From: Nitrospirales bacterium
Lineage (GTDB): Bacteria > Nitrospirota > Nitrospiria > Nitrospirales > UBA8639
Assembly: GCA_963422365.1 (NCBI GenBank)
Contig: OY729426.1
Location: 1,440,001-1,504,000 of the forward strand
Length of the DNA stretch: 64,000 nucleotides
Direction: 5' to 3'
The notes under the pieces are model-generated. The model was not told the origin of the DNA and made no database searches. It saw nothing but the letters and a program-made list of their open reading frames with translations. Position numbers and translations under genes: made by a program. Position 1 is the first letter of the stretch; every line of letters starts with the position of its first letter. This document shows, one piece after another, positions 26,457 to 35,915 of this stretch.

Positions 26457-29054
26457 TTATGAAAGGGGACGGTAAGCTTTTCTGCGAGGGCCATCATGAG
26501 GGCCGGCAGCCTGATGTTCCGCAACAAGTTCGCCGACTTGTTCTTTCCAGCGATCTTCAAACATCATCCTGAAAACAGCAGGCGGTTCGCAGACTTTCAT
26601 TTCGCCTCTGTCAAGGGCCGCGTTGTACGCCGCTTCAAGGGTCTCAAGCAGCTTCTTCTTGTAGCCCGTCTCCTCATTTCCCTTCAGGTGAACGCCTTTT
26701 GTTTCCAGAATCAGCAGTATCCCGTCACCTTGTCGGCAAGCCACAAAGTCGGGATAGACCCGCTGACGTCTCCACCCTTGGAGGGAATATTGTTGCCTTG
26801 CGGCGATCTTGTGCCACCAAGAGATGGAGTTGCTCTTGTCCAGGTACAGCGCAAAGTCTTTTTCGAGATTATTGAAATTGCTTTCATACACGGGCTCAAA
26901 AAGACTCTGCTGTATCGGCTGGCCGTGTTCGCCCTGAAGCGATCTTTCCTTGCTGGACACGAAAACCTCAAACGACTTGTCCAGTTCATAATCCAATGCC
27001 TCGTCGGTCTCAAGATGAAACCTGATCGCATCGCTTTTAACTTTGCGGTGGAAAACCGACTCGGCTTTCTTGTCCAGATCTGCCTTGATCCTTTGACGCA
27101 ACACCTCTGAGAGATCAATCCGGTTATTCAGCAGTGTTGAGTCGTTGTATCCCGTGCGCTTGTGCTGTTGGAGAAAATTCTCCGCTATGCACGCGGCCTG
27201 CCACGGGTTGGGCACCACGTCCGTCAGCCGCCGGACGAAATAATCAAGGCTCAATCGTTCTCCGGTCTCAAAAGCCTGTTCGGAGGACTTGCTTTCCGCC
27301 TGGATGTCAACTGTGGCGATGACCTCACGAATCGTGTCTTTCGCGTCCAGATTGACCGCCTTGCCCGCGTCGATTGTGTCCCAAGCCACCGCGCCTAGTA
27401 TGTCGCGGTCGTAATCAATCGGACGCCATCCATAACCCTCTTTGTGCAGAACCTGAGGGAGAAAGATCGCAAGCTTGCTATATTTTTGGCGGCGCTTGAC
27501 GGTTTGTGGCTTTGGTGCGTCACCTTCACCCTCGCTGCGAATGGCATCGCCGAGCCCAGTCAGCCCTTCGTTTTCCAGTCCGGCCTTCACCCCTTCGACG
27601 GCCCTGCCCACGTCCGTGTTGTAACAGTAGATGTAACATCTGTTCAGATTGTCGCTTTTCTCGATTCTGCGCGCGTGCGGCTGTCGCATGATCCGTCCGG
27701 TCATCTGGGTCATAGCCGTTGTCGCCGTGGTGTTGTCCAATAAAGCCAGCACGTAGGCGAACGAGCAGTCCCAGCCCTCTTTGAGCGCGTCTTTGGTGAT
27801 GATCCAGCGGACGAGGCTTTGTTCGCTCAATACATCTTCCTGCGCAAGTTCCTTGTTTTCAGACGACTGCACTCGTACCTGCGCCTCCGGTACGGAAAGG
27901 TGCCGTATCAGGTAGTTGCGCACGTCCTCGGAATGAATGTTCCCCTGGCTCCGCTGCTCCCTGCCCGTTCGTTGCACCCTCACCAGAGCGATGGGACGGA
28001 CATAACGGTTTTCCCGTGCTTGAAGGCTTCGGGTTTCGATTTCCAACTCCTGTAATTTCCGCTGGGTTTCGGCGAGCGTATGCTTCCAGTCGGAATTGGC
28101 GAAGCTGTGGATCTCTATCGGCAGCTTTATCATCTCCTCGGCTTGAAGCTCGGTTCCCGAGACGTTGACCAGGATGTTACTGATGCCGATTTTGGGTGTG
28201 GCGGACAGTTCGAGCACAAAGCGGGGGTTGAGTCGATTGACGGACTTGACGAACTCCCGGTTGTTTTTGTCGTTCGGCCCATATGCCTTGTGTGCCTCAT
28301 CCAGAATTACGGTGGGATGGATGAGTTTCAGGACGTTTATCAGGCTTTGCTTGACCCAATCGCCGCTGTGGTTCTTCTCTAGGTCTGGGAGGTGTTCTGA
28401 AAGCTCGCGGTTCGCGGCCATGTCGTCCTGCTCGGGAAAGAACGACGTATACCCGCCGCTGTCCCGGAATATCTTGAGAAAGTCCTTGCCCTTTTGTCTG
28501 TTGGCGGACGGCAGCATCAGCATCATGACGCACAGGCGGCTTGCCACGTCCTGCTTGGTGAATCGCTCGTCCTTCTGCAACAGCTTGACCTTGCCGCCGG
28601 AAATTCTTTCAAGCATTTGCCGGTACGGATGTTCGCGGGTTCTGAACGCCTTGAACGTCTGCTCGTAAATCGCCTTGGTCGGCACGATCCACAGCACAAA
28701 GCCGGTGTCCTGCTTGATACGCTCAAGCGCGGCCACGCCCAGCAGCGTCTTGCCGCCTCCGGTCGGGACTTTCAGGCAGACGTGCGGGACAGGTTCACCG
28801 GACGTGGCTGTGCGGGAGATGTAATCGGGGACTTCGGGGTTTCCGTCTTGGTGCTGAACGGCGGGAAGAATGTTCTGGTTTTTCAGGTTTCTCCAGGCAG
28901 AAAGGGGATAATTTTTCAGTTCTTCGGGAACATCGACGCCGCTCTCTTCAAGTGCCTTTGTGGCTTTTTTGTATTTCAGCCGGGCGTTCTTGAGTCCTTC
29001 GAGCCAGCGGTCCAACTGCTCAAGGGCGTTCTGCTGGTAGGTTTTGAGGTGCAT
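26457..29054 (-). CDS. res: Type III restriction enzyme Res subunit (SF2 helicase plus PD-(D/E)XK nuclease)
   Basis: PTGGGKT, LDEAH, LSATP, LKEGWD, QMTGRIMR and a C-terminal YPDF...LETKG motif; downstream of mod. Confidence 0.9.
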   Translation of the reverse strand: MHLKTYQQNALEQLDRWLEGLKNARLKYKKATKALEESGVDVPEELKNYPLSAWRNLKNQNILPAVQHQDGNPEVPDYISRTATSGEPVPHVCLKVPTGGGKTLLGVAALERIKQDTGFVLWIVPTKAIYEQTFKAFRTREHPYRQMLERISGGKVKLLQKDERFTKQDVASRLCVMMLMLPSANRQKGKDFLKIFRDSGGYTSFFPEQDDMAANRELSEHLPDLEKNHSGDWVKQSLINVLKLIHPTVILDEAHKAYGPNDKNNREFVKSVNRLNPRFVLELSATPKIGISNILVNVSGTELQAEEMIKLPIEIHSFANSDWKHTLAETQRKLQELEIETRSLQARENRYVRPIALVRVQRTGREQRSQGNIHSEDVRNYLIRHLSVPEAQVRVQSSENKELAQEDVLSEQSLVRWIITKDALKEGWDCSFAYVLALLDNTTATTAMTQMTGRIMRQPHARRIEKSDNLNRCYIYCYNTDVGRAVEGVKAGLENEGLTGLGDAIRSEGEGDAPKPQTVKRRQKYSKLAIFLPQVLHKEGYGWRPIDYDRDILGAVAWDTIDAGKAVNLDAKDTIREVIATVDIQAESKSSEQAFETGERLSLDYFVRRLTDVVPNPWQAACIAENFLQQHKRTGYNDSTLLNNRIDLSEVLRQRIKADLDKKAESVFHRKVKSDAIRFHLETDEALDYELDKSFEVFVSSKERSLQGEHGQPIQQSLFEPVYESNFNNLEKDFALYLDKSNSISWWHKIAARQQYSLQGWRRQRVYPDFVACRQGDGILLILETKGVHLKGNEETGYKKKLLETLEAAYNAALDRGEMKVCEPPAVFRMMFEDRWKEQVGELVAEHQAAGPHDGPRRKAYRPLS

Positions 29055-29055
29055 T

Positions 29056-29838
29056 CTACCCTATCTGGTCCGCAAGAAAATCCTTGATTCTCTTCCTGTT
29101 ATCCTGCATCAGACTGGAAAATTGACGGTCGCAAACATCCGTGAAGCGGGACAGCACTTTACGACTGATCTGTTCCTGGTCTTCAAAAATCCCCAACGTC
29201 AGAAAAGTTCGATTCCATCGCTGAAATTGCAAGATGCCGATGGTTGTATCACGACATTTATCGTCATTTCCTATGGCGTAGACGTGTAAAGGGCGAGCCA
29301 TGCCGTTGATGCGGCAATCCACCGCGTACTTGCCGTTGGGATCATGCGATGCATCATTGTAATCAAACGTGAATCTTTCGGGACTTACGGTTTCACTGAT
29401 AAATTCCTTGAAATCGTCTATGAATGTAGACGCCACTCGTTCTCGGCTCAGATAAGAAACGTCGGTGATGTTGATGAGACACTGGATAACGTTATAGAAC
29501 ACGTTGCCCGCGTTTGTGAGTTCATGAATCTGAGCAAAGAGTTGTCCTTCATGTTCTGTAACGCCGTATCGTTCCAAGGCCCCTTCAATAAACTCGTTAC
29601 GACTCTCCTTTTCGAGAGACGACAAATCCATGTGATAGCTCAGGTGCATATAGGTATGACCTTCATCGGTAATGATCCAATCGCCGATTTCATCCTTTCG
29701 TAACGCGAGAACAAAATGATCGCCATCATCAAAATGAAACGGCGTAAAAATCTTGTAACGATTGACTCCTTCGGGAATCAGTCGGATAGATTCGGTGACC
29801 GTCGCCTTGAATGAATCCTGTATTGCGTCGACGTTCAC
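29056..29838 (-). CDS. DUF1828/DUF1829-like protein
   Basis: IFTPFHFDDGDH...WIITDEGHT (DUF1828-like), then FIDDFKEFI...GKYAVDCRING (possible nuclease-like C-domain). Recognised by eye. Confidence 0.75.
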   Translation of the reverse strand: MNVDAIQDSFKATVTESIRLIPEGVNRYKIFTPFHFDDGDHFVLALRKDEIGDWIITDEGHTYMHLSYHMDLSSLEKESRNEFIEGALERYGVTEHEGQLFAQIHELTNAGNVFYNVIQCLINITDVSYLSRERVASTFIDDFKEFISETVSPERFTFDYNDASHDPNGKYAVDCRINGMARPLHVYAIGNDDKCRDTTIGILQFQRWNRTFLTLGIFEDQEQISRKVLSRFTDVCDRQFSSLMQDNRKRIKDFLADQIG

Positions 29839-30344
29839 GAGAACATCTCCATTTGGGACGAATTGCCGGAACTGTCACCTGCCACGTGGCAGTCCGCTAC
29901 AAGACACCGGAAGGCCTCGTTCAAATCCGCATAACGGTCAGTAGGCATGGCGTAATGTTCATCGTGATAAAAGGAGTGCTGATATGTCTCCGTCGCCTGG
30001 TGAATATGAAAATCGTAGAACGGTGGTTGCTCTTCCAGCCGATTTGTATGCTCATGGCTTTTGCCGTTGTAACGTCTCAGCATGAAGGCTTGATTTCGTC
30101 CTTGCGGAATGAATCCCAAACCACAGGAAAAATCCAGTGGATTCAGTTTGTTGCGCCGTAAGTATATGAGCCAATCGCCTTCGCCATTTTGTCTTGGAAA
30201 TCGGCGCGAATGAGCGAAGTGGGAAGATGCTCTGCCGCTTTTGATTTTCATGTTCCGCAAAAGGGAAACGGCAGAGCAATCAATCTGTTTAGGCTCATCA
30301 ATCAAATCCTGTATTTGTTCATTGGTGAGGAAAAACTTTTTCAT
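29835..30344 (-). CDS. Uncharacterised His-motif protein (DUF6978-like)
   Basis: LxxxxIxxLIxEPK start, LRRYNGKSHEHTN and FHIH; its stop overlaps the next start (GTGA). Confidence 0.65.
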   Translation of the reverse strand: MKKFFLTNEQIQDLIDEPKQIDCSAVSLLRNMKIKSGRASSHFAHSRRFPRQNGEGDWLIYLRRNKLNPLDFSCGLGFIPQGRNQAFMLRRYNGKSHEHTNRLEEQPPFYDFHIHQATETYQHSFYHDEHYAMPTDRYADLNEAFRCLVADCHVAGDSSGNSSQMEMFS

Positions 30345-30371
30345 GAAAGGTTAACCAATCCTATAACAATT

Positions 30372-32027
30372 TTATAAAGATACTCCATACGGCAAGCCGC
30401 AGAACGTAATCCCCATCTGGGTCAATTCCTTCTGGCCCATGAACTTGTGGGTGGCGAAGACGACCGCGGTTTTTTGCTTTTTCTTGGCCTGCCTGGCGAT
30501 GCGTTCGGCACGCTCGCCGTTCAGGGCGGACTCGGCGCTGCGCAGGAAGGCGAGGTCAGGCTCGTAGACCAGATAGAACAGCCTATCGTCGGTTTCATGA
30601 AAAAGGCCGTCCTGACTCCGTGCCTTGCGGGTCGTGTCCGGCGCTTGACCAGTCGCCGTATAGACAAGGTGGCGGGCCAGGGTGTCGTAGCCCGGCAGGT
30701 TTTCTCCGCTGAGCATCTTTTCCGGGCTGATTTCCTCGCCCAAGGTGCAATAGGTGAAACCGCCGCCCAGCCCGTTTTTCAGGGTTTCGTCCTTCGCCGT
30801 CGGAACGCCGTTGATGACGCGGCGCACACGCTCAGCGGTGATGGTGTCGGCGTAGTTTTCGCACTCGACCAGGATGAATTTGCGGTTGCCGTTATCTTCC
30901 GCGTTGAGCGCTAATACCGCCTGTGCCGTCGTGCCGGAGCCGGCGAAGGAGTCCAGGATGATAGCATTTTTATTGGTGGCAAGTTGAAAAATTCGCGTGA
31001 GTAGTCGAACCGGCTTGGGCGTATCAAAAGGAGCTTTCCCTTCATGCAGAGTCTTCAACTCCAAAGTCGCTTCCTTACTATGTCCAGCGAATTTATGGTC
31101 CCACCAGGTATTCGGCGTAAGGCCAGCCTGAGTCTCGGAGAGGAATCTTTTTAGCATCGGACGTCCGGTCCCCGATGTCCCAAACGTAATTCGCCGTTCG
31201 TTGAGCCATTTTTGATACTGGCACTTGTTCATGCGCCAATAACGGTTCGGTGGTGGGTCGAACTTGTCCCCTTTCGGTCCGATGATTGTAAATTGACCGG
31301 CGGAATATGGTTTGCTGGCAGACAGGTCCTGTGCTCTCCAAGGACCACGAGGGTCGTTGTCAGAGTTTTTGTAGTCTGCTTCTTGTTTGGGAGTTCGAGG
31401 GAGCTTATTTACTAAGAAATAGTCAATTGCTCTCGCGTAGCAGATTACGTGGTCGTGCATATCTGACAGAAATCCGGCGGTTACGTTTGAGACGTAACGC
31501 TTCTGCCAGACAATGTTTGCGACAAAATTCTCCTCCCCGAAAATCTCATCCATCATCATCCGCAGATGATGTTGCTCATTATCATCAATCGAAACAAAAA
31601 TCGCCCCGCCCTCGGCCAGCATCTCGCGTAACAGGTGCAGCCGCGGCCACATCATGCACAGCCACTTGTCGTGTCGCTCCAGGTCTTCGCCGTCCACCGG
31701 GCTTTTATCTTTCAGCCATTCCTGCATCAGCGGGCTGTTCACGTTGTCGTTGTACACCCAGCCTTCGTTGCCGGTGTTGTAGGGCGGGTCAATGTAGATG
31801 CAGTTCACCCGTCCGGCGTAGCGCGGCATGAGCGCCTTGAGCGCGTGCAGGTTGTCGCCGTGGATGATCAGATTGTCGTCGAGAGAAGGCTTTTCCCCCT
31901 TCGGCAGACGAGACCCCCGCTTACGTGGGGGAAGGCTTTTTGCAGCGTCCGGCTCAAGCGTTCGGGCAGGCACGCTCAGGTGATGGGCATACACGAGTGG
32001 CTTGCCTTTGAAATCAAGCGTCGGCAT
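30372..32027 (-). CDS. mod: Type III R-M DNA methyltransferase Mod
   Basis: NLIIHGDNL, IYIDPPYNTG, FVSIDDNE, TPKPV and ILDSFAGSGTT (beta-class amino-MTase). Confidence 0.92.
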   Translation of the reverse strand: MPTLDFKGKPLVYAHHLSVPARTLEPDAAKSLPPRKRGSRLPKGEKPSLDDNLIIHGDNLHALKALMPRYAGRVNCIYIDPPYNTGNEGWVYNDNVNSPLMQEWLKDKSPVDGEDLERHDKWLCMMWPRLHLLREMLAEGGAIFVSIDDNEQHHLRMMMDEIFGEENFVANIVWQKRYVSNVTAGFLSDMHDHVICYARAIDYFLVNKLPRTPKQEADYKNSDNDPRGPWRAQDLSASKPYSAGQFTIIGPKGDKFDPPPNRYWRMNKCQYQKWLNERRITFGTSGTGRPMLKRFLSETQAGLTPNTWWDHKFAGHSKEATLELKTLHEGKAPFDTPKPVRLLTRIFQLATNKNAIILDSFAGSGTTAQAVLALNAEDNGNRKFILVECENYADTITAERVRRVINGVPTAKDETLKNGLGGGFTYCTLGEEISPEKMLSGENLPGYDTLARHLVYTATGQAPDTTRKARSQDGLFHETDDRLFYLVYEPDLAFLRSAESALNGERAERIARQAKKKQKTAVVFATHKFMGQKELTQMGITFCGLPYGVSL

Positions 32028-32066
32028 GGCAGTCTTACAGAATTACAATCAAGCCGAGTTGACGGA

Positions 32067-32468
32067 TCATGTCCCGGCGTTGTGGCGTTGCAGATTGCCT
32101 TTCCACTTCAAGATGGTTTGGTCGGCGGTCACCAGGGTTGCTGAAGTTGCAATGGCCGTTGTCATAATCAGACGGTCGTCAGGGTCGCCGTGAAAATTTA
32201 CCAGTTCCGATGCGATGATCCCAATCCCGCCTGTCACGGCGACTTCATTCAGGCCCTGTTGCAACAGGTCTTGCATCCATTATGATACGGGTTTTGAAAG
32301 GGAGAGCCGTTTTTTTTGTATCAACGTGGCAATTTCCCAGAAGCTTATTGATGAGACGGCAATGTCCTTGTTCCTCAATCTTTTGTCAATAAGCTTTCGG
32401 GATTGTAACCCTAACCGTGTATTCCCTTCATCCATCCAGATCAGTGTCTGCGTATCGAGGATCATCAA
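32067..32468 (-). pseudogene. vapC: VapC PIN-domain toxin with an in-frame nonsense codon
   Basis: IILDTQTLIW...SSISFWEI...KPVS-TAA(32282-32280)-WMQDLL...HGDPDDRLI...LVTAD; both halves are in the same frame. Confidence 0.85.
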
Positions 32469-32692
32469 TGGTCTGCATCCCAGGTCTCATCAACGGGACA
32501 GGTAAGATCATCATGGCTCTTGATGACGCCGTGATGCAGTCCGAATAATGACGCCGGTTTCCGGTGAGAGGGAACAAGTCTGCCGACCGGTTTGCCGTGC
32601 TTGGTAATAATGATGGGTTCTCTTTTCTCAGAGACTTCATCAATGAATCCCAGGCATTTCGCTTTAAATTCCGATGCATTGACGGTTTTCAT
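32465..32692 (-). CDS. Phd/YefM-family antitoxin
   Basis: MKTVNASEFKAKCL...IIITKHGKPVGRLVP; overlaps the vapC start. Confidence 0.9.
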   Translation of the reverse strand: MKTVNASEFKAKCLGFIDEVSEKREPIIITKHGKPVGRLVPSHRKPASLFGLHHGVIKSHDDLTCPVDETWDADH

Positions 32693-32705
32693 AGCATTTC
32701 TCTCA

Positions 32706-33647
32706 TTAATGAAACGTCACGACAGGAAGATGCTTCCCGATATAGCCTATTTCCAGAGTCTTGTTTGGTTTGTCGATTCGGAAATGGATGCGATATCCGC
32801 TGCCAATCATTGCATGTAGACGGAAGATATTCCTCTGTCCGCTGATGCTTCTGAATTCCCGCTTGTTTCCATATCGTTGCATGGTTGCCTCACTTTCTGT
32901 ATGTACCATCGGTAATGCCGGTTTTTCTGTCCCTTCAAGTCGCCAATTTCGCACCGCGCCATCCAAGGTGATCAATTTGCCTCTTGCCAAGTTTAGAATC
33001 GCAACTGAAAGTTCAGCGGTTTGAGGATCTATGTCCAGCCCGAACGTCAGGTGAGGAAAACAATTGGCTTTCCTTTGCGCCAGAATCACCGGCTGCTCCT
33101 TCAGAGCCGCCTGATCTCTGCCAGCCATTTCATCAGAGATAACCGTGACGTGCGTCATCGTCGAAAGGTTGGGCACTTTCACTTCCTTTTCCCGTTCCAT
33201 TCCCGAGTTCTCAAGCCATGTATGACGTACTTGGACATGCGTCTGCCGCCAATATTCTTCAGAAGGTAGACTCACGGCGGTCGTATGGAGCAGATAAGCA
33301 AGCCCCAAGCCGCCTGCTTGCCGTTGTCCGAAATGAAAGTCCGAAAGGTAGAACCGATCCTTGACGGCATCGGACACAGCCTGCTCGAAATTCATCTTTG
33401 CTGAAATCTTCAAGAAAAAATTTCTCAAATCGCGATCGACTTGGTCATCGCATGACCACTGGAACACCGTATAGTCTGCCGCTAATGGAGTCTGATGTAT
33501 GGCGAAGTCCTTAATCCAAACGAGTGTCGGGACTTGGCCGCTCGCCAATGTCGCCACGGCCTTCACCAAATTCGTTGTCCGTTCTCTTGCCTGGTCACGC
33601 GATTACGCGATGTTGCTCGCGGAAAGTTCGTTGAATACCAGGATCAT
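32706..33647 (-). pseudogene. Putative defence effector (NsnC position) with a RelE-like C-terminus and a nonsense codon at codon 15
   Basis: ATG at 33647, 1 nt after the ATPase stop: MILVFNELSASNIA-TAA(33605-33603)-SRDQARERTTNLVKAV continues in frame to ...RLHAMIGSGYRIHF...LEIGYIGKHLP. Confidence 0.7.
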
Positions 33648-33648
33648 T

Positions 33649-34764
33649 TCAAATCCCGGTCTTCTGTTCTGGCGCTATCAGTGAAGCCAGGGTTTTTTCG
33701 TGTTGATCGAAGAAACCTTCAGGCCAGACGTCCAACCGGCCATCTTGCTGTATGACGGGTGTCGTGACTTCGGCGTCCAGCCCCTTTCGCTGAAAGTAAT
33801 GCAGGACAGCTTGTTCGGGTTCGATGATGGCATGACGAACCGCCAGGCGTAGCCCGTCCAGAATGTGGTCGCTGTGAGTTTCCAAAATAACTTGCCTTCC
33901 TCCTGAAACGGCTCTTGCCGCGAGTTCAGCCAGTCTGGTTTGCCCTCCAGGATGAAGATGGGCTTCGGGATTCTCAATGATCACCAAGTCGTCATTCTGA
34001 GCGGCCAGCAACGCGACAATGACGGGCAGGGCATAACTCAATCCGAATCCGACGTTTGTTGCTCGAAAGGGTTTTGTCATCACGTCTCCCTGTCGGAAGA
34101 AGGAAAAATCTGCCAAAGCGCTATCCGCTTTTGGTATGGAAGTGATGTTAAGCTTGGCTCCTGGACTGATAACCTTTAGCCAGGCATTGGTCTGGGAAAG
34201 CAGAGTCGTTTGATCTGCTTCTGGATGTCTAAGAATCTCCGGGATTTTCCGTTCGCCGTATTTTGCCAAAAACCAGAGCACGTGCTCGCCATTTTTGCCT
34301 AGCGGAGTATCCGATTCATGTCCCTGTTCAAAAAATGGCAGCATTTTTTGTGGTCCATGTCGCTCAGCACTCAGATAGAACATGGACCATCTATACAGTG
34401 AAGTATCTTGAGCACCGTTGAACCCCTTGGGTTGTTCTGCCTGAGGCATTTGAGACTCGTCTTTTATCTCGCCGACCTTGATAAATTTGGACCTGTCGAA
34501 TTTGGCTTCCAGTTCAATGGCGTCTTGCTCGGCACCTTCGTAGAGCATATCGCTGAACGAGCCGGTATCGACCAGCTTGCCTTGCCAGCGTAAAAATCTA
34601 GGGTGGCCTTGCTCGTCAAGACCAGCTTGACGGAGCAGCAATAGTGCCTGTATAAAGCTACTTTTCCCCGTGCCGTTCACCCCGGCCAAAATCGTCAATC
34701 CCCCGAGAGGCAGTTCGCATTCTTTGAAACATTTGAAGTTTTTCATTTGTATCCGGGTAATCAT
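33649..34764 (-). CDS. ABC/AAA ATPase with DUF3696-like C-terminus (Menshen NsnB-like)
   Basis: NFKCF, GVNGTGKSS, VGFGLSYALP, IENPEAHLHP, ETHSDH and WPEGFFDQ. Confidence 0.85.
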   Translation of the reverse strand: MITRIQMKNFKCFKECELPLGGLTILAGVNGTGKSSFIQALLLLRQAGLDEQGHPRFLRWQGKLVDTGSFSDMLYEGAEQDAIELEAKFDRSKFIKVGEIKDESQMPQAEQPKGFNGAQDTSLYRWSMFYLSAERHGPQKMLPFFEQGHESDTPLGKNGEHVLWFLAKYGERKIPEILRHPEADQTTLLSQTNAWLKVISPGAKLNITSIPKADSALADFSFFRQGDVMTKPFRATNVGFGLSYALPVIVALLAAQNDDLVIIENPEAHLHPGGQTRLAELAARAVSGGRQVILETHSDHILDGLRLAVRHAIIEPEQAVLHYFQRKGLDAEVTTPVIQQDGRLDVWPEGFFDQHEKTLASLIAPEQKTGI

Positions 34765-35915
34765 GCCAATACCTCCTGGAGGAGTTTTTTGATCCGTTCG
34801 AAGCGAGTAGCGACTCGATCATTCCACTGGGTCCCTATGCTGATGCTTTCCACGAATCTATCTTCTTCCATCAGGTCATTAAAACGATCTTGAACGTTCT
34901 TTCGTCGATCTATGAGGCGTTGGCCTTGAGATTCATCCACGCGCGCCAGATTGACCGACCAGCTTTCAAATAGGGGTTTGTTGATGGGACTTTTGCGTTC
35001 TATTCCTTTTTTGGGTGGTTTGCGGAATGCTTCGGTACCAAACAGAGCAGCGGCGAATCGCATCGCACGACGAAAATCATCGTTCAGTGAAGCCAATTGC
35101 TCTTCGCTCATATTGTTATTCAAGGAACCCATGGCGTTTACGAGGAAGGCGTCCAGATTCCCCTTGTATTCCTCTAAAGGCTGTAAGTGGAATGCTATGA
35201 ACCGCAGCACGCACTCACGGTCCGCCATGCGAGTCAAACCCACGCTGTTGTTGGTTGCCTTCAAAAAGTCTTGGTCTGTTGCTAATTCGTTGATAAATTG
35301 CCGTGCTCTGCCGGGGTTCAGGGCATGTCGAATTTCCTGTGGTGACAGGGGCTTGCCCCCGGTATTGATGCGTTTGAAAACGTTAAACATGACTTCCGGC
35401 GGTGTACCCGGTTGAATGACGTGGCAGGAAAGCTGTGTCTCGTCGATCCGTCGCTGCATAGAACGAGGGAGATCGTTATAAAGCTGGCCTTCAAATTGAT
35501 TCAGATATTCCAGTCCATGCAAACGAAGCGTCCTGTCAAGGACGAAGTCTTTTAACGTATCCAGTCGTTGCAGGCCATCAACAACCTGCCATTTGTCTTC
35601 TTTGTCCGCCGCCATGTAGAACACCGGGATGGGAATGCGTAACAGGAGTGACTCAATGAGCCGGCTTTTCCTTTTTCTCTCCCAGATGCCCGAGTGACGC
35701 TGAAAATCGGGATTCAGGTCTATTTCCTTACGTTCGATTCTTTTCATAATCAGATCAACGACGGGATTTTTCGTGTCGATGTCAATTTTCGTGGGATCGA
35801 AGGGATCTTTGATTGGAGGGACAGTGCGCGAAGAATCTAATCCTTCAACATCTTCTTGCTCAACGCCTTCCAAGGGTTCTTCGGACATGTCATGAATGTC
35901 AGAATCAGGTGCCAC
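34761..35915 (-). CDS. DUF262 (ParB-like) domain protein (Menshen NsnA-like)
   Basis: PDFQR, LIESLLLRIPIP, VDGLQRL, FKRINTGG and QEIRHA. Confidence 0.88.
   Translation of the reverse strand: MAPDSDIHDMSEEPLEGVEQEDVEGLDSSRTVPPIKDPFDPTKIDIDTKNPVVDLIMKRIERKEIDLNPDFQRHSGIWERKRKSRLIESLLLRIPIPVFYMAADKEDKWQVVDGLQRLDTLKDFVLDRTLRLHGLEYLNQFEGQLYNDLPRSMQRRIDETQLSCHVIQPGTPPEVMFNVFKRINTGGKPLSPQEIRHALNPGRARQFINELATDQDFLKATNNSVGLTRMADRECVLRFIAFHLQPLEEYKGNLDAFLVNAMGSLNNNMSEEQLASLNDDFRRAMRFAAALFGTEAFRKPPKKGIERKSPINKPLFESWSVNLARVDESQGQRLIDRRKNVQDRFNDLMEEDRFVESISIGTQWNDRVATRFERIKKLLQEVLA

Follow-up and report, generated by a model that had tools for sequence, protein, structure and literature searches.

The described system closest to the gene pair analysed here (A and B) is PDC-M24, a phage defence candidate of PADLOC-DB v2 (Payne et al. 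2024, 10.1101/2024.01.29.577857). In the accessible parts of that paper, 145 such candidates (PDCs) are defined by embedding, none of them being tested, and defence is reported for seven of the nine embedded candidates assayed; the embedding screen covered BREX, DISARM, Hma and type I restriction-modification (RM) systems, but not type III. In addition, the available tables of DefensePredictor include, among the genes predicted to be defensive (Table S5), an E. coli DUF1828 gene and the gene overlapping it upstream, with log-odds of 5.6 and 4.9, respectively, while the accessions and name of that pair are absent from the screened units in Table S6. No toxicity, neutralisation or phage test of the pair was found in the accessible literature on DUF1828, DUF1829, DUF6978 and PDC-M24.

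Other systems share single features with the pair. DS-6/HipAD is a validated two-gene defence system which its authors, in the available sections of their paper, propose to be a toxin-antitoxin (TA) pair (PMC13092281); its non-kinase partner, DS-6B/HipD, has a DUF1829, which the C-terminal half of B resembles, and is predicted to interact both with its partner and with DNA and proposed as the antitoxin. However, the first gene of that system encodes a HipA kinase and the N-terminal domain of DS-6B is a DUF3037, whereas A has no kinase match and B carries DUF1828. According to the available portion of its source, PrrC, an anticodon nuclease embedded in EcoprrI, is a precedent in type I systems (PMC12707154); A and B are likewise nested in an RM operon, but have no ABC ATPase or HEPN match and are not limited to one host system. 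TumE-TumA (DUF6516; PMC10584680) resembles the pair in having a small alpha+beta protein, a two-gene operon and an R-x-D/N..H..HxH motif, which is seen in the alignment, but the partner of TumE is unrelated to B. The TY-chaperones (T3SS CesT/YbjN-like) are described as peptide-binding chaperones in conflict systems (PMC9503650) and have the fold of B's N-terminal domain, which B combines with a nuclease-like domain, its partner being a protein with a His cluster.

Anatomy of the cassette and its surroundings

The window, that is, the whole 64,000-nucleotide stretch of a Nitrospirales bacterium genome that was analysed, contains a type III RM operon on its minus strand, in the order mod (30372-32027, 551 aa), a 27-nt gap, gene A, gene B, a single nucleotide, and res (26457-29054, 865 aa, with its ATG at 29054). 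Gene A (29835-30344, minus strand) encodes a protein of 169 aa that includes RRYNGKSHEHTN and FHIH. Gene B (29056-29838, minus strand) encodes 260 aa from a GTG start that overlaps the TGA stop of A, giving a GTGA overlap at 29835-29838 on the same strand. These coordinates agree with the original prediction, which had described two intact genes of these lengths between mod and res, overlapping by GTGA and ending 1 nt before res. The type III assignment was equally borne out, as PADLOC identified Mod and Res as type III (E 8e-181 and 1e-212, respectively) and their motifs DPPY, FxGxGT, Walker A, DEAH and PD..ExK are intact. The pair is also more AT-rich than mod and res, as had been noticed, with GC contents of 47.1% for A and 45.8% for B against 55.3% for mod, 54.7% for res and 53.4% for the genome; among 1,936 genome windows of equal size, A and B together rank at the 3.4th percentile.

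The dN/dS ratios were 0.09-0.20 for A (four relatives) and 0.07-0.18 for B (three of the four relatives, the fourth being saturated); therefore, both are real genes under purifying selection. A contig from run X4 is identical over 28569-30483, although this run and the source of the window are possibly not independent. A and B form a two-gene operon with an overlap, the arrangement looked for in type II TA systems. Scans for promoters, terminators and repeats revealed no excess over shuffled sequences, and the cassette showed neither an internal promoter nor a flanking repeat.

Immediately upstream of mod, Menshen nsnABC was observed (32706-35915, minus strand), in which the 15th codon of nsnC (about 33605-33603) is an in-frame stop, one that both relatives checked lack; the order of Menshen followed by mod recurs in loci L171 and L181. 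A PIN toxin gene (32066-32694, minus strand) has an in-frame TAA at 32282-32280, and the C-terminal piece of the interrupted gene matches PIN at E 0.0009. The small ORF preceding it presumably resembles a Phd/YefM antitoxin, judging by its motif. The earlier statement that neighbouring effectors have been inactivated holds for both of these interrupted genes.

Families, folds and predicted complex of A and B

B is a DUF1828 protein (68.7 bits against a cut-off of 22) with a DUF1829-like C-terminal half, in line with the identity first proposed for it. Among the PADLOC models it matches PDC-M24B (E 6.7e-17 and 1.4e-13) with its N-terminal half only, over positions 10-147 of the 255 in the profile. 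The match of A to DUF6978 is weak (E 0.016; 15.9 bits against a cut-off of 29.6), and the window's A has no match to the PADLOC models of PDC-M24A at E ≤ 0.1. Among 113 relatives of A, 72 match DUF6978 and 25 match a PDC-M24A model at E ≤ 0.1, the best at 6.9e-6. In profile comparisons, A reached an hhalign probability of 96% (E 3e-9) with a canonical DUF6978 set of seven proteins and B one of 98% with a canonical DUF1828 set of six, these sets excluding a phage pair from the window's own subfamily; reversed and crossed controls stayed below 0.5%. The matches of the relatives together with these profile matches make the pair a divergent sister form of PDC-M24, and since A lacks a direct PDC-M24A match, it was filed as such rather than as a strict member. 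Both forms have the same two-gene order, with a DUF6978-type gene followed by an adjacent DUF1828-type gene on one strand, but they differ in their motifs, which are RYNG..H.H.N in the window form against R.D....H.N in A, and DDGD against DRHND in B. The description of the cassette as undescribed is therefore not supported: it is a sister form of a named candidate, so that a match to a named system, which had been set to refute it, was obtained in part, and DefensePredictor already lists an E. coli DUF1828 gene with its partner.

The profile of A retrieved 1,360 cluster representatives at E ≤ 0.001, and its subfamily comprises at least 897 at E ≤ 1e-10. In a set of 175 sequences from three subgroups, R91, N101 and H113 are present in all 175 and H99 and H115 in 174; R91, N/D93, H99, N101, H113 and H115 are conserved in all three subgroups. 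The structural model of A (pLDDT 91.7) is a beta-meander with flanking helices. Foldseek found nothing for it at E ≤ 0.001 in PDB or BFVD, with one uncharacterised phage protein at E 0.002, and comparison with solved structures gave no clear fold match (best VIA-align Z 4.7); this missing match is no proof of a new fold. Sequence searches of PDB yielded no meaningful match and no kin of A or B at E < 0.08, NCBIfam gave no meaningful match for either, and in PHROGs both match unnamed families only. Homology of A to TumE (PF20126) was considered and rejected, as hhalign gave 0.25% and 7.7% at best and the widest profile scored 11.2 against 8.3-19.0 in 20 shuffled controls. Because no solved fold is clearly matched, the chemistry of A is read from its conservation only, by which A is a likely metal-dependent hydrolase; A is also the likely toxin of the pair.

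The model of B consists of two domains. Residues 11-133 adopt a type III secretion chaperone/YbjN-like fold (Z 8.1-9.1, with 3cxj at 9.1 and Spa15 at 8.3), and residues of about 133-260 a restriction-endonuclease fold (Z 8.7-10.3), with matches to PspGI (Z 10.3, rmsd 6.2, 159 aligned), Cdn1 (Z 9.5, rmsd 3.8, 112 aligned), Can2 (Z 9.3, rmsd 3.5, 119 aligned) and BsaWI. The C-terminal domain has DUF1829 look-alikes at 0.93-0.94, the family being found on 10-14% of members. D40 is present in 160 of 161 sequences, and D142 and D174 in 157 each. Column counts over the same 161 sequences showed no (D/E)xK in the third strand, which was taken from the secondary structure of the model and not from residue-level superposition; its segment P183-A188 is hydrophobic in 155 subfamily members, with no conserved acidic residue or lysine. 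Of the nuclease-like C-terminal domain that had been suggested, the fold was thus recovered and the catalytic signature was not. B may nevertheless be an atypical nuclease, because its C-terminal domain keeps D142 and D174, and on that footing B would be the effector, an atypical PD-(D/E)XK nuclease with A as its regulator or sensor. With its third strand devoid of a conserved acidic residue or lysine, response-regulator domains scoring nearly as high as PspGI, Cdn1 and Can2 (Z 8.3), and B occurring without A at some loci (see below), this is the most improbable of the explanations weighed. The His cluster of A is a better catalytic candidate than the nuclease-like domain of B, and B is likely the antitoxin.

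A complex of two B and one A was predicted with a score of 0.87 in three runs, against 0.00 for the best of three controls; of 157 solved complexes 116 reached the mark used, as did 2 of 215 mismatched pairs, counts that apply here only roughly. The runs share at least 88% of their contacts, with a partner pLDDT of at least 86. In this predicted complex, A docks on a dimer of B, at the N-terminal domains with the chaperone fold, and the D38-G39-D40-H41 loop of B lies on the N93/H97/H99/H115 cluster of A. The surest contacts are those of G39, D40 and H41 with A 97-100, of D40 with N93 and of D38 with H115; a helix of B (61-68) is also placed on R63, D71 and S73 of A. The contact residues are the most conserved ones in both proteins. 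A is accordingly predicted to bind B, with a loop of B over the likely active site of A.

Judged from the model, an acidic loop over a His cluster is equally consistent with a plug and with a shared active site. In the latter case, D38 and D40 of B would complete a metal site with the histidines of A, and the complex would attack phage nucleic acid or a signalling nucleotide, neither subunit being toxic alone. This is a possible though doubtful explanation, which the predicted interface fits as well, and D40 and the histidines of A are kept together in all three subgroups. It would also be favoured by the one in-frame A-B fusion observed (L078:7512-8774), but there the otherwise invariant H113 is a leucine, and the apparent fusion in L010 is a frameshifted A; fusions were therefore dropped as support. 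Such an enzyme would moreover predict equal loss of either gene, which is addressed by the survey below.

Distribution, context and loss of the pair

The genomic context was surveyed in the best 80 of 240 genome loci and scored with 13 reference proteins within 5 kb, several of which derive from surveyed loci. In 70 of these 80, an A homolog stands directly before B. An RM, Hma or BREX gene was found within 5 kb in 38 loci, compared with 6% of random sites in the window's own genome, and this agrees with the original prediction of an embedded module of likely defensive type. The pair lies between type III mod and res in seven loci, inside Hma in five, inside BREX in three and inside type I RM in one, and 22 loci have a reference gene on one side only. 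The remaining 42 have no reference gene within 5 kb, many of their contigs being short; among the 30 loci with full flanks outside the closest clade, 15 have none. On viral contigs, 22 of 55 copies are behind a cI-like gene, as in phage PQ758389. Related genomes contained any match to B's alignment in 9 of 61 cases, and plasmids gave no match to B. The pair is spread horizontally and tightly linked across many phyla, in many host operons.

All seven type III mod-res cases belong to the 14 closest loci, which form one clade of mixed phyla. This clade, comprising the window and L001-L014 with a support of 99, is the only use made of a quick tree, in which a long-branch phage row also falls inside it. 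The names of several of its loci suggest sponge symbionts.

Two further canonical-type DUF6978 and DUF1828 pairs occur in the same genome as the window (G000:C1:154500-155520 and G000:C1:623465-624250), and both are apparently eroded, with a stop in the A gene of the first and a split B in the second; one own-genome locus is matched by both PDLC04538 and PF22398. In four Nitrospirota loci (L021:4636-7305, L024, L030 and L043), the pair stands behind the gene of an 880-aa protein and ahead of a methyltransferase; the first 420 aa of the 880-aa protein have no Pfam match at E ≤ 1e-9, and it has no PADLOC match at E ≤ 1e-20.

The two genes are lost unequally. When the search started from B, 6 of the 79 genome loci that could be assessed had no A and 8 had a broken one, one of the 80 having been dropped for want of room. 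When it started from A, none of 57 metagenome loci with room lacked B and one had it broken (from the best 80 of 555, a further 21 having B cut by a contig end and two having no room), and on viral contigs B is absent in none and short in two of 55. The asymmetry gave a Fisher p of 0.004, and of 0.036 without the closest clade, values to be read with the provisos that different collections are compared, that each query favours its own intact gene, that the loci are related, that one clade accounts for 6 of the 14 decayed A genes and that some breaks may be sequencing errors. Loss of A with retention of B is the pattern expected of a toxin that requires its antitoxin, and B persisting without A, but not the reverse, argues against a shared enzyme, and the finding of B without A against B as the effector.

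We prefer the reading, at a probability of roughly one half, that A and B are a self-contained, putative TA-like anti-phage module residing in a variable mod-res gap. Besides the unequal loss, the linkage of the genes, the predicted complex with its conserved contacts, the defence context, the toxin genes that occupy the gap in the genus (see below) and the DUF1829 of DS-6B/HipD speak for it. A would be a His-dependent, metal-dependent hydrolase toxin, probably acting on nucleic acid, and the acidic loop of B would block it, while the degenerate nuclease fold of B may bind DNA or sense infection. If B were lost or distracted during infection, A would be freed and the cell would arrest.

The pair might also be selfish, stabilising its operon or prophage as an addiction or stress module and giving no protection against phages. 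Its patchy occurrence, with a match to B's alignment in so few of the related genomes and remnants in three loci of the genus, would suit such a module, and so would the sharing of its slot with HicAB, ParDE and PIN pairs. We regard it as unlikely, since the pair is repeatedly embedded in four kinds of DNA-modification defence operons and stands behind cI-like genes on viral contigs, and since the accessible parts of Payne et al. (seven of nine embedded candidates defensive) and of DefensePredictor (5.6 and 4.9 for the E. coli pair) point to defence.

The mod-res gap as a cargo slot

Of the 37 other genomes in the genus, 18 have this Res, and the gap was surveyed in 17 loci with a Res identity of at least 69%, taken from 20 regions. 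The expectation that mod and res are normally adjacent failed locally, as mod abuts res in only one of these 17 loci, and there a further mod with cargo lies upstream; the remaining gaps range from 0.5 to 8 kb. The cargo includes PIN, HicAB and ParDE pairs, TPR proteins, a lipase and a kinase-ATPase operon, and a PIN, HicA or ParE toxin gene (named via cluster representatives) occurs in the gap of 11 loci. None of the 17 has an intact A and B between mod and res; three contain remnants of the pair, one has a frameshifted A with an intact B, and 16 have no full-length B nearby.

These counts bear on the proposal that the cassette is coupled to Res, in which case it would act as PrrC does, as a guard bound to the type III enzyme and set off once that enzyme is inhibited by a phage. 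The pair's tight spacing to res, seen in the window and in seven of its 14 closest loci, would fit, and PrrC offers a precedent in type I systems, as the available portion of its source describes (PMC12707154). However, the mod-res position is confined to one clade, and the pair otherwise occurs in unrelated hosts (Hma, BREX, type I RM and prophage repressor operons) or alone; in L001 an intact A and B occupy the same chromosomal site with neither mod nor res; and none of the 17 mod-res loci of the genus has an intact pair. Coupling to Res is thus very unlikely. A and B appear to be one passenger of a hotspot and not a partner of Res, and under the preferred module reading the host operon would probably offer them a promoter and a protected site rather than a trigger.

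Further features of these gaps were observed. Short duplicates of the mod 3′ end (around aa 500-550) flank the cargo in L003, L004, L006, L008, L009, L168, L172 and L176, and some of these intervals also have duplicates of the res 5′ end (aa 1-70) beside the cargo, suggesting an array that grows or shuffles via recombination at these ends. A three-gene cargo recurs in L175:691-5316, L140:9008-13678 and L174:2309-6965, consisting of a methyltransferase-like protein, a Ser/Thr kinase with an ORC/CDC6-like ATPase, and a protein matching CARF6 of PADLOC. A TPR protein family next to res is also recurrent (L170:3011-4786; 23 clustered ORFs from 16 loci), with some members fused to HicB-like N-termini, and an IS1595-family (ISXO2-like) transposase lies within the gap at L140:14320-15102.

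PDC-M24 is widespread, and no published test or mechanism for it was found in the accessible part of the literature searched. As a candidate it is already catalogued; new are the residue-level plug model and the prediction that A binds B, both drawn from structural models. A more ambitious and tentative combination would make DUF6978 a toxin class that combines an R/N/3His site with a fold unmatched by solved structures. An antitoxin of secretion-chaperone fold would hold this toxin with an aspartate plug and sense phage DNA through its dead nuclease domain. The same combination would make the type III mod-res gap of this lineage an expanding cassette array, driven by recombination at duplicated mod 3′ and res 5′ ends and minable for defence genes. 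The finding gives no new Res-coupled guard. It reveals a subfamily whose window member escapes the PDC-M24A models, it brings type III mod-res gaps within the reach of guilt-by-embedding, and it provides the kin of PDC-M24 with a predicted residue-level model, in which H99, H113 and H115 of A and D38 and D40 of B would be the key positions.
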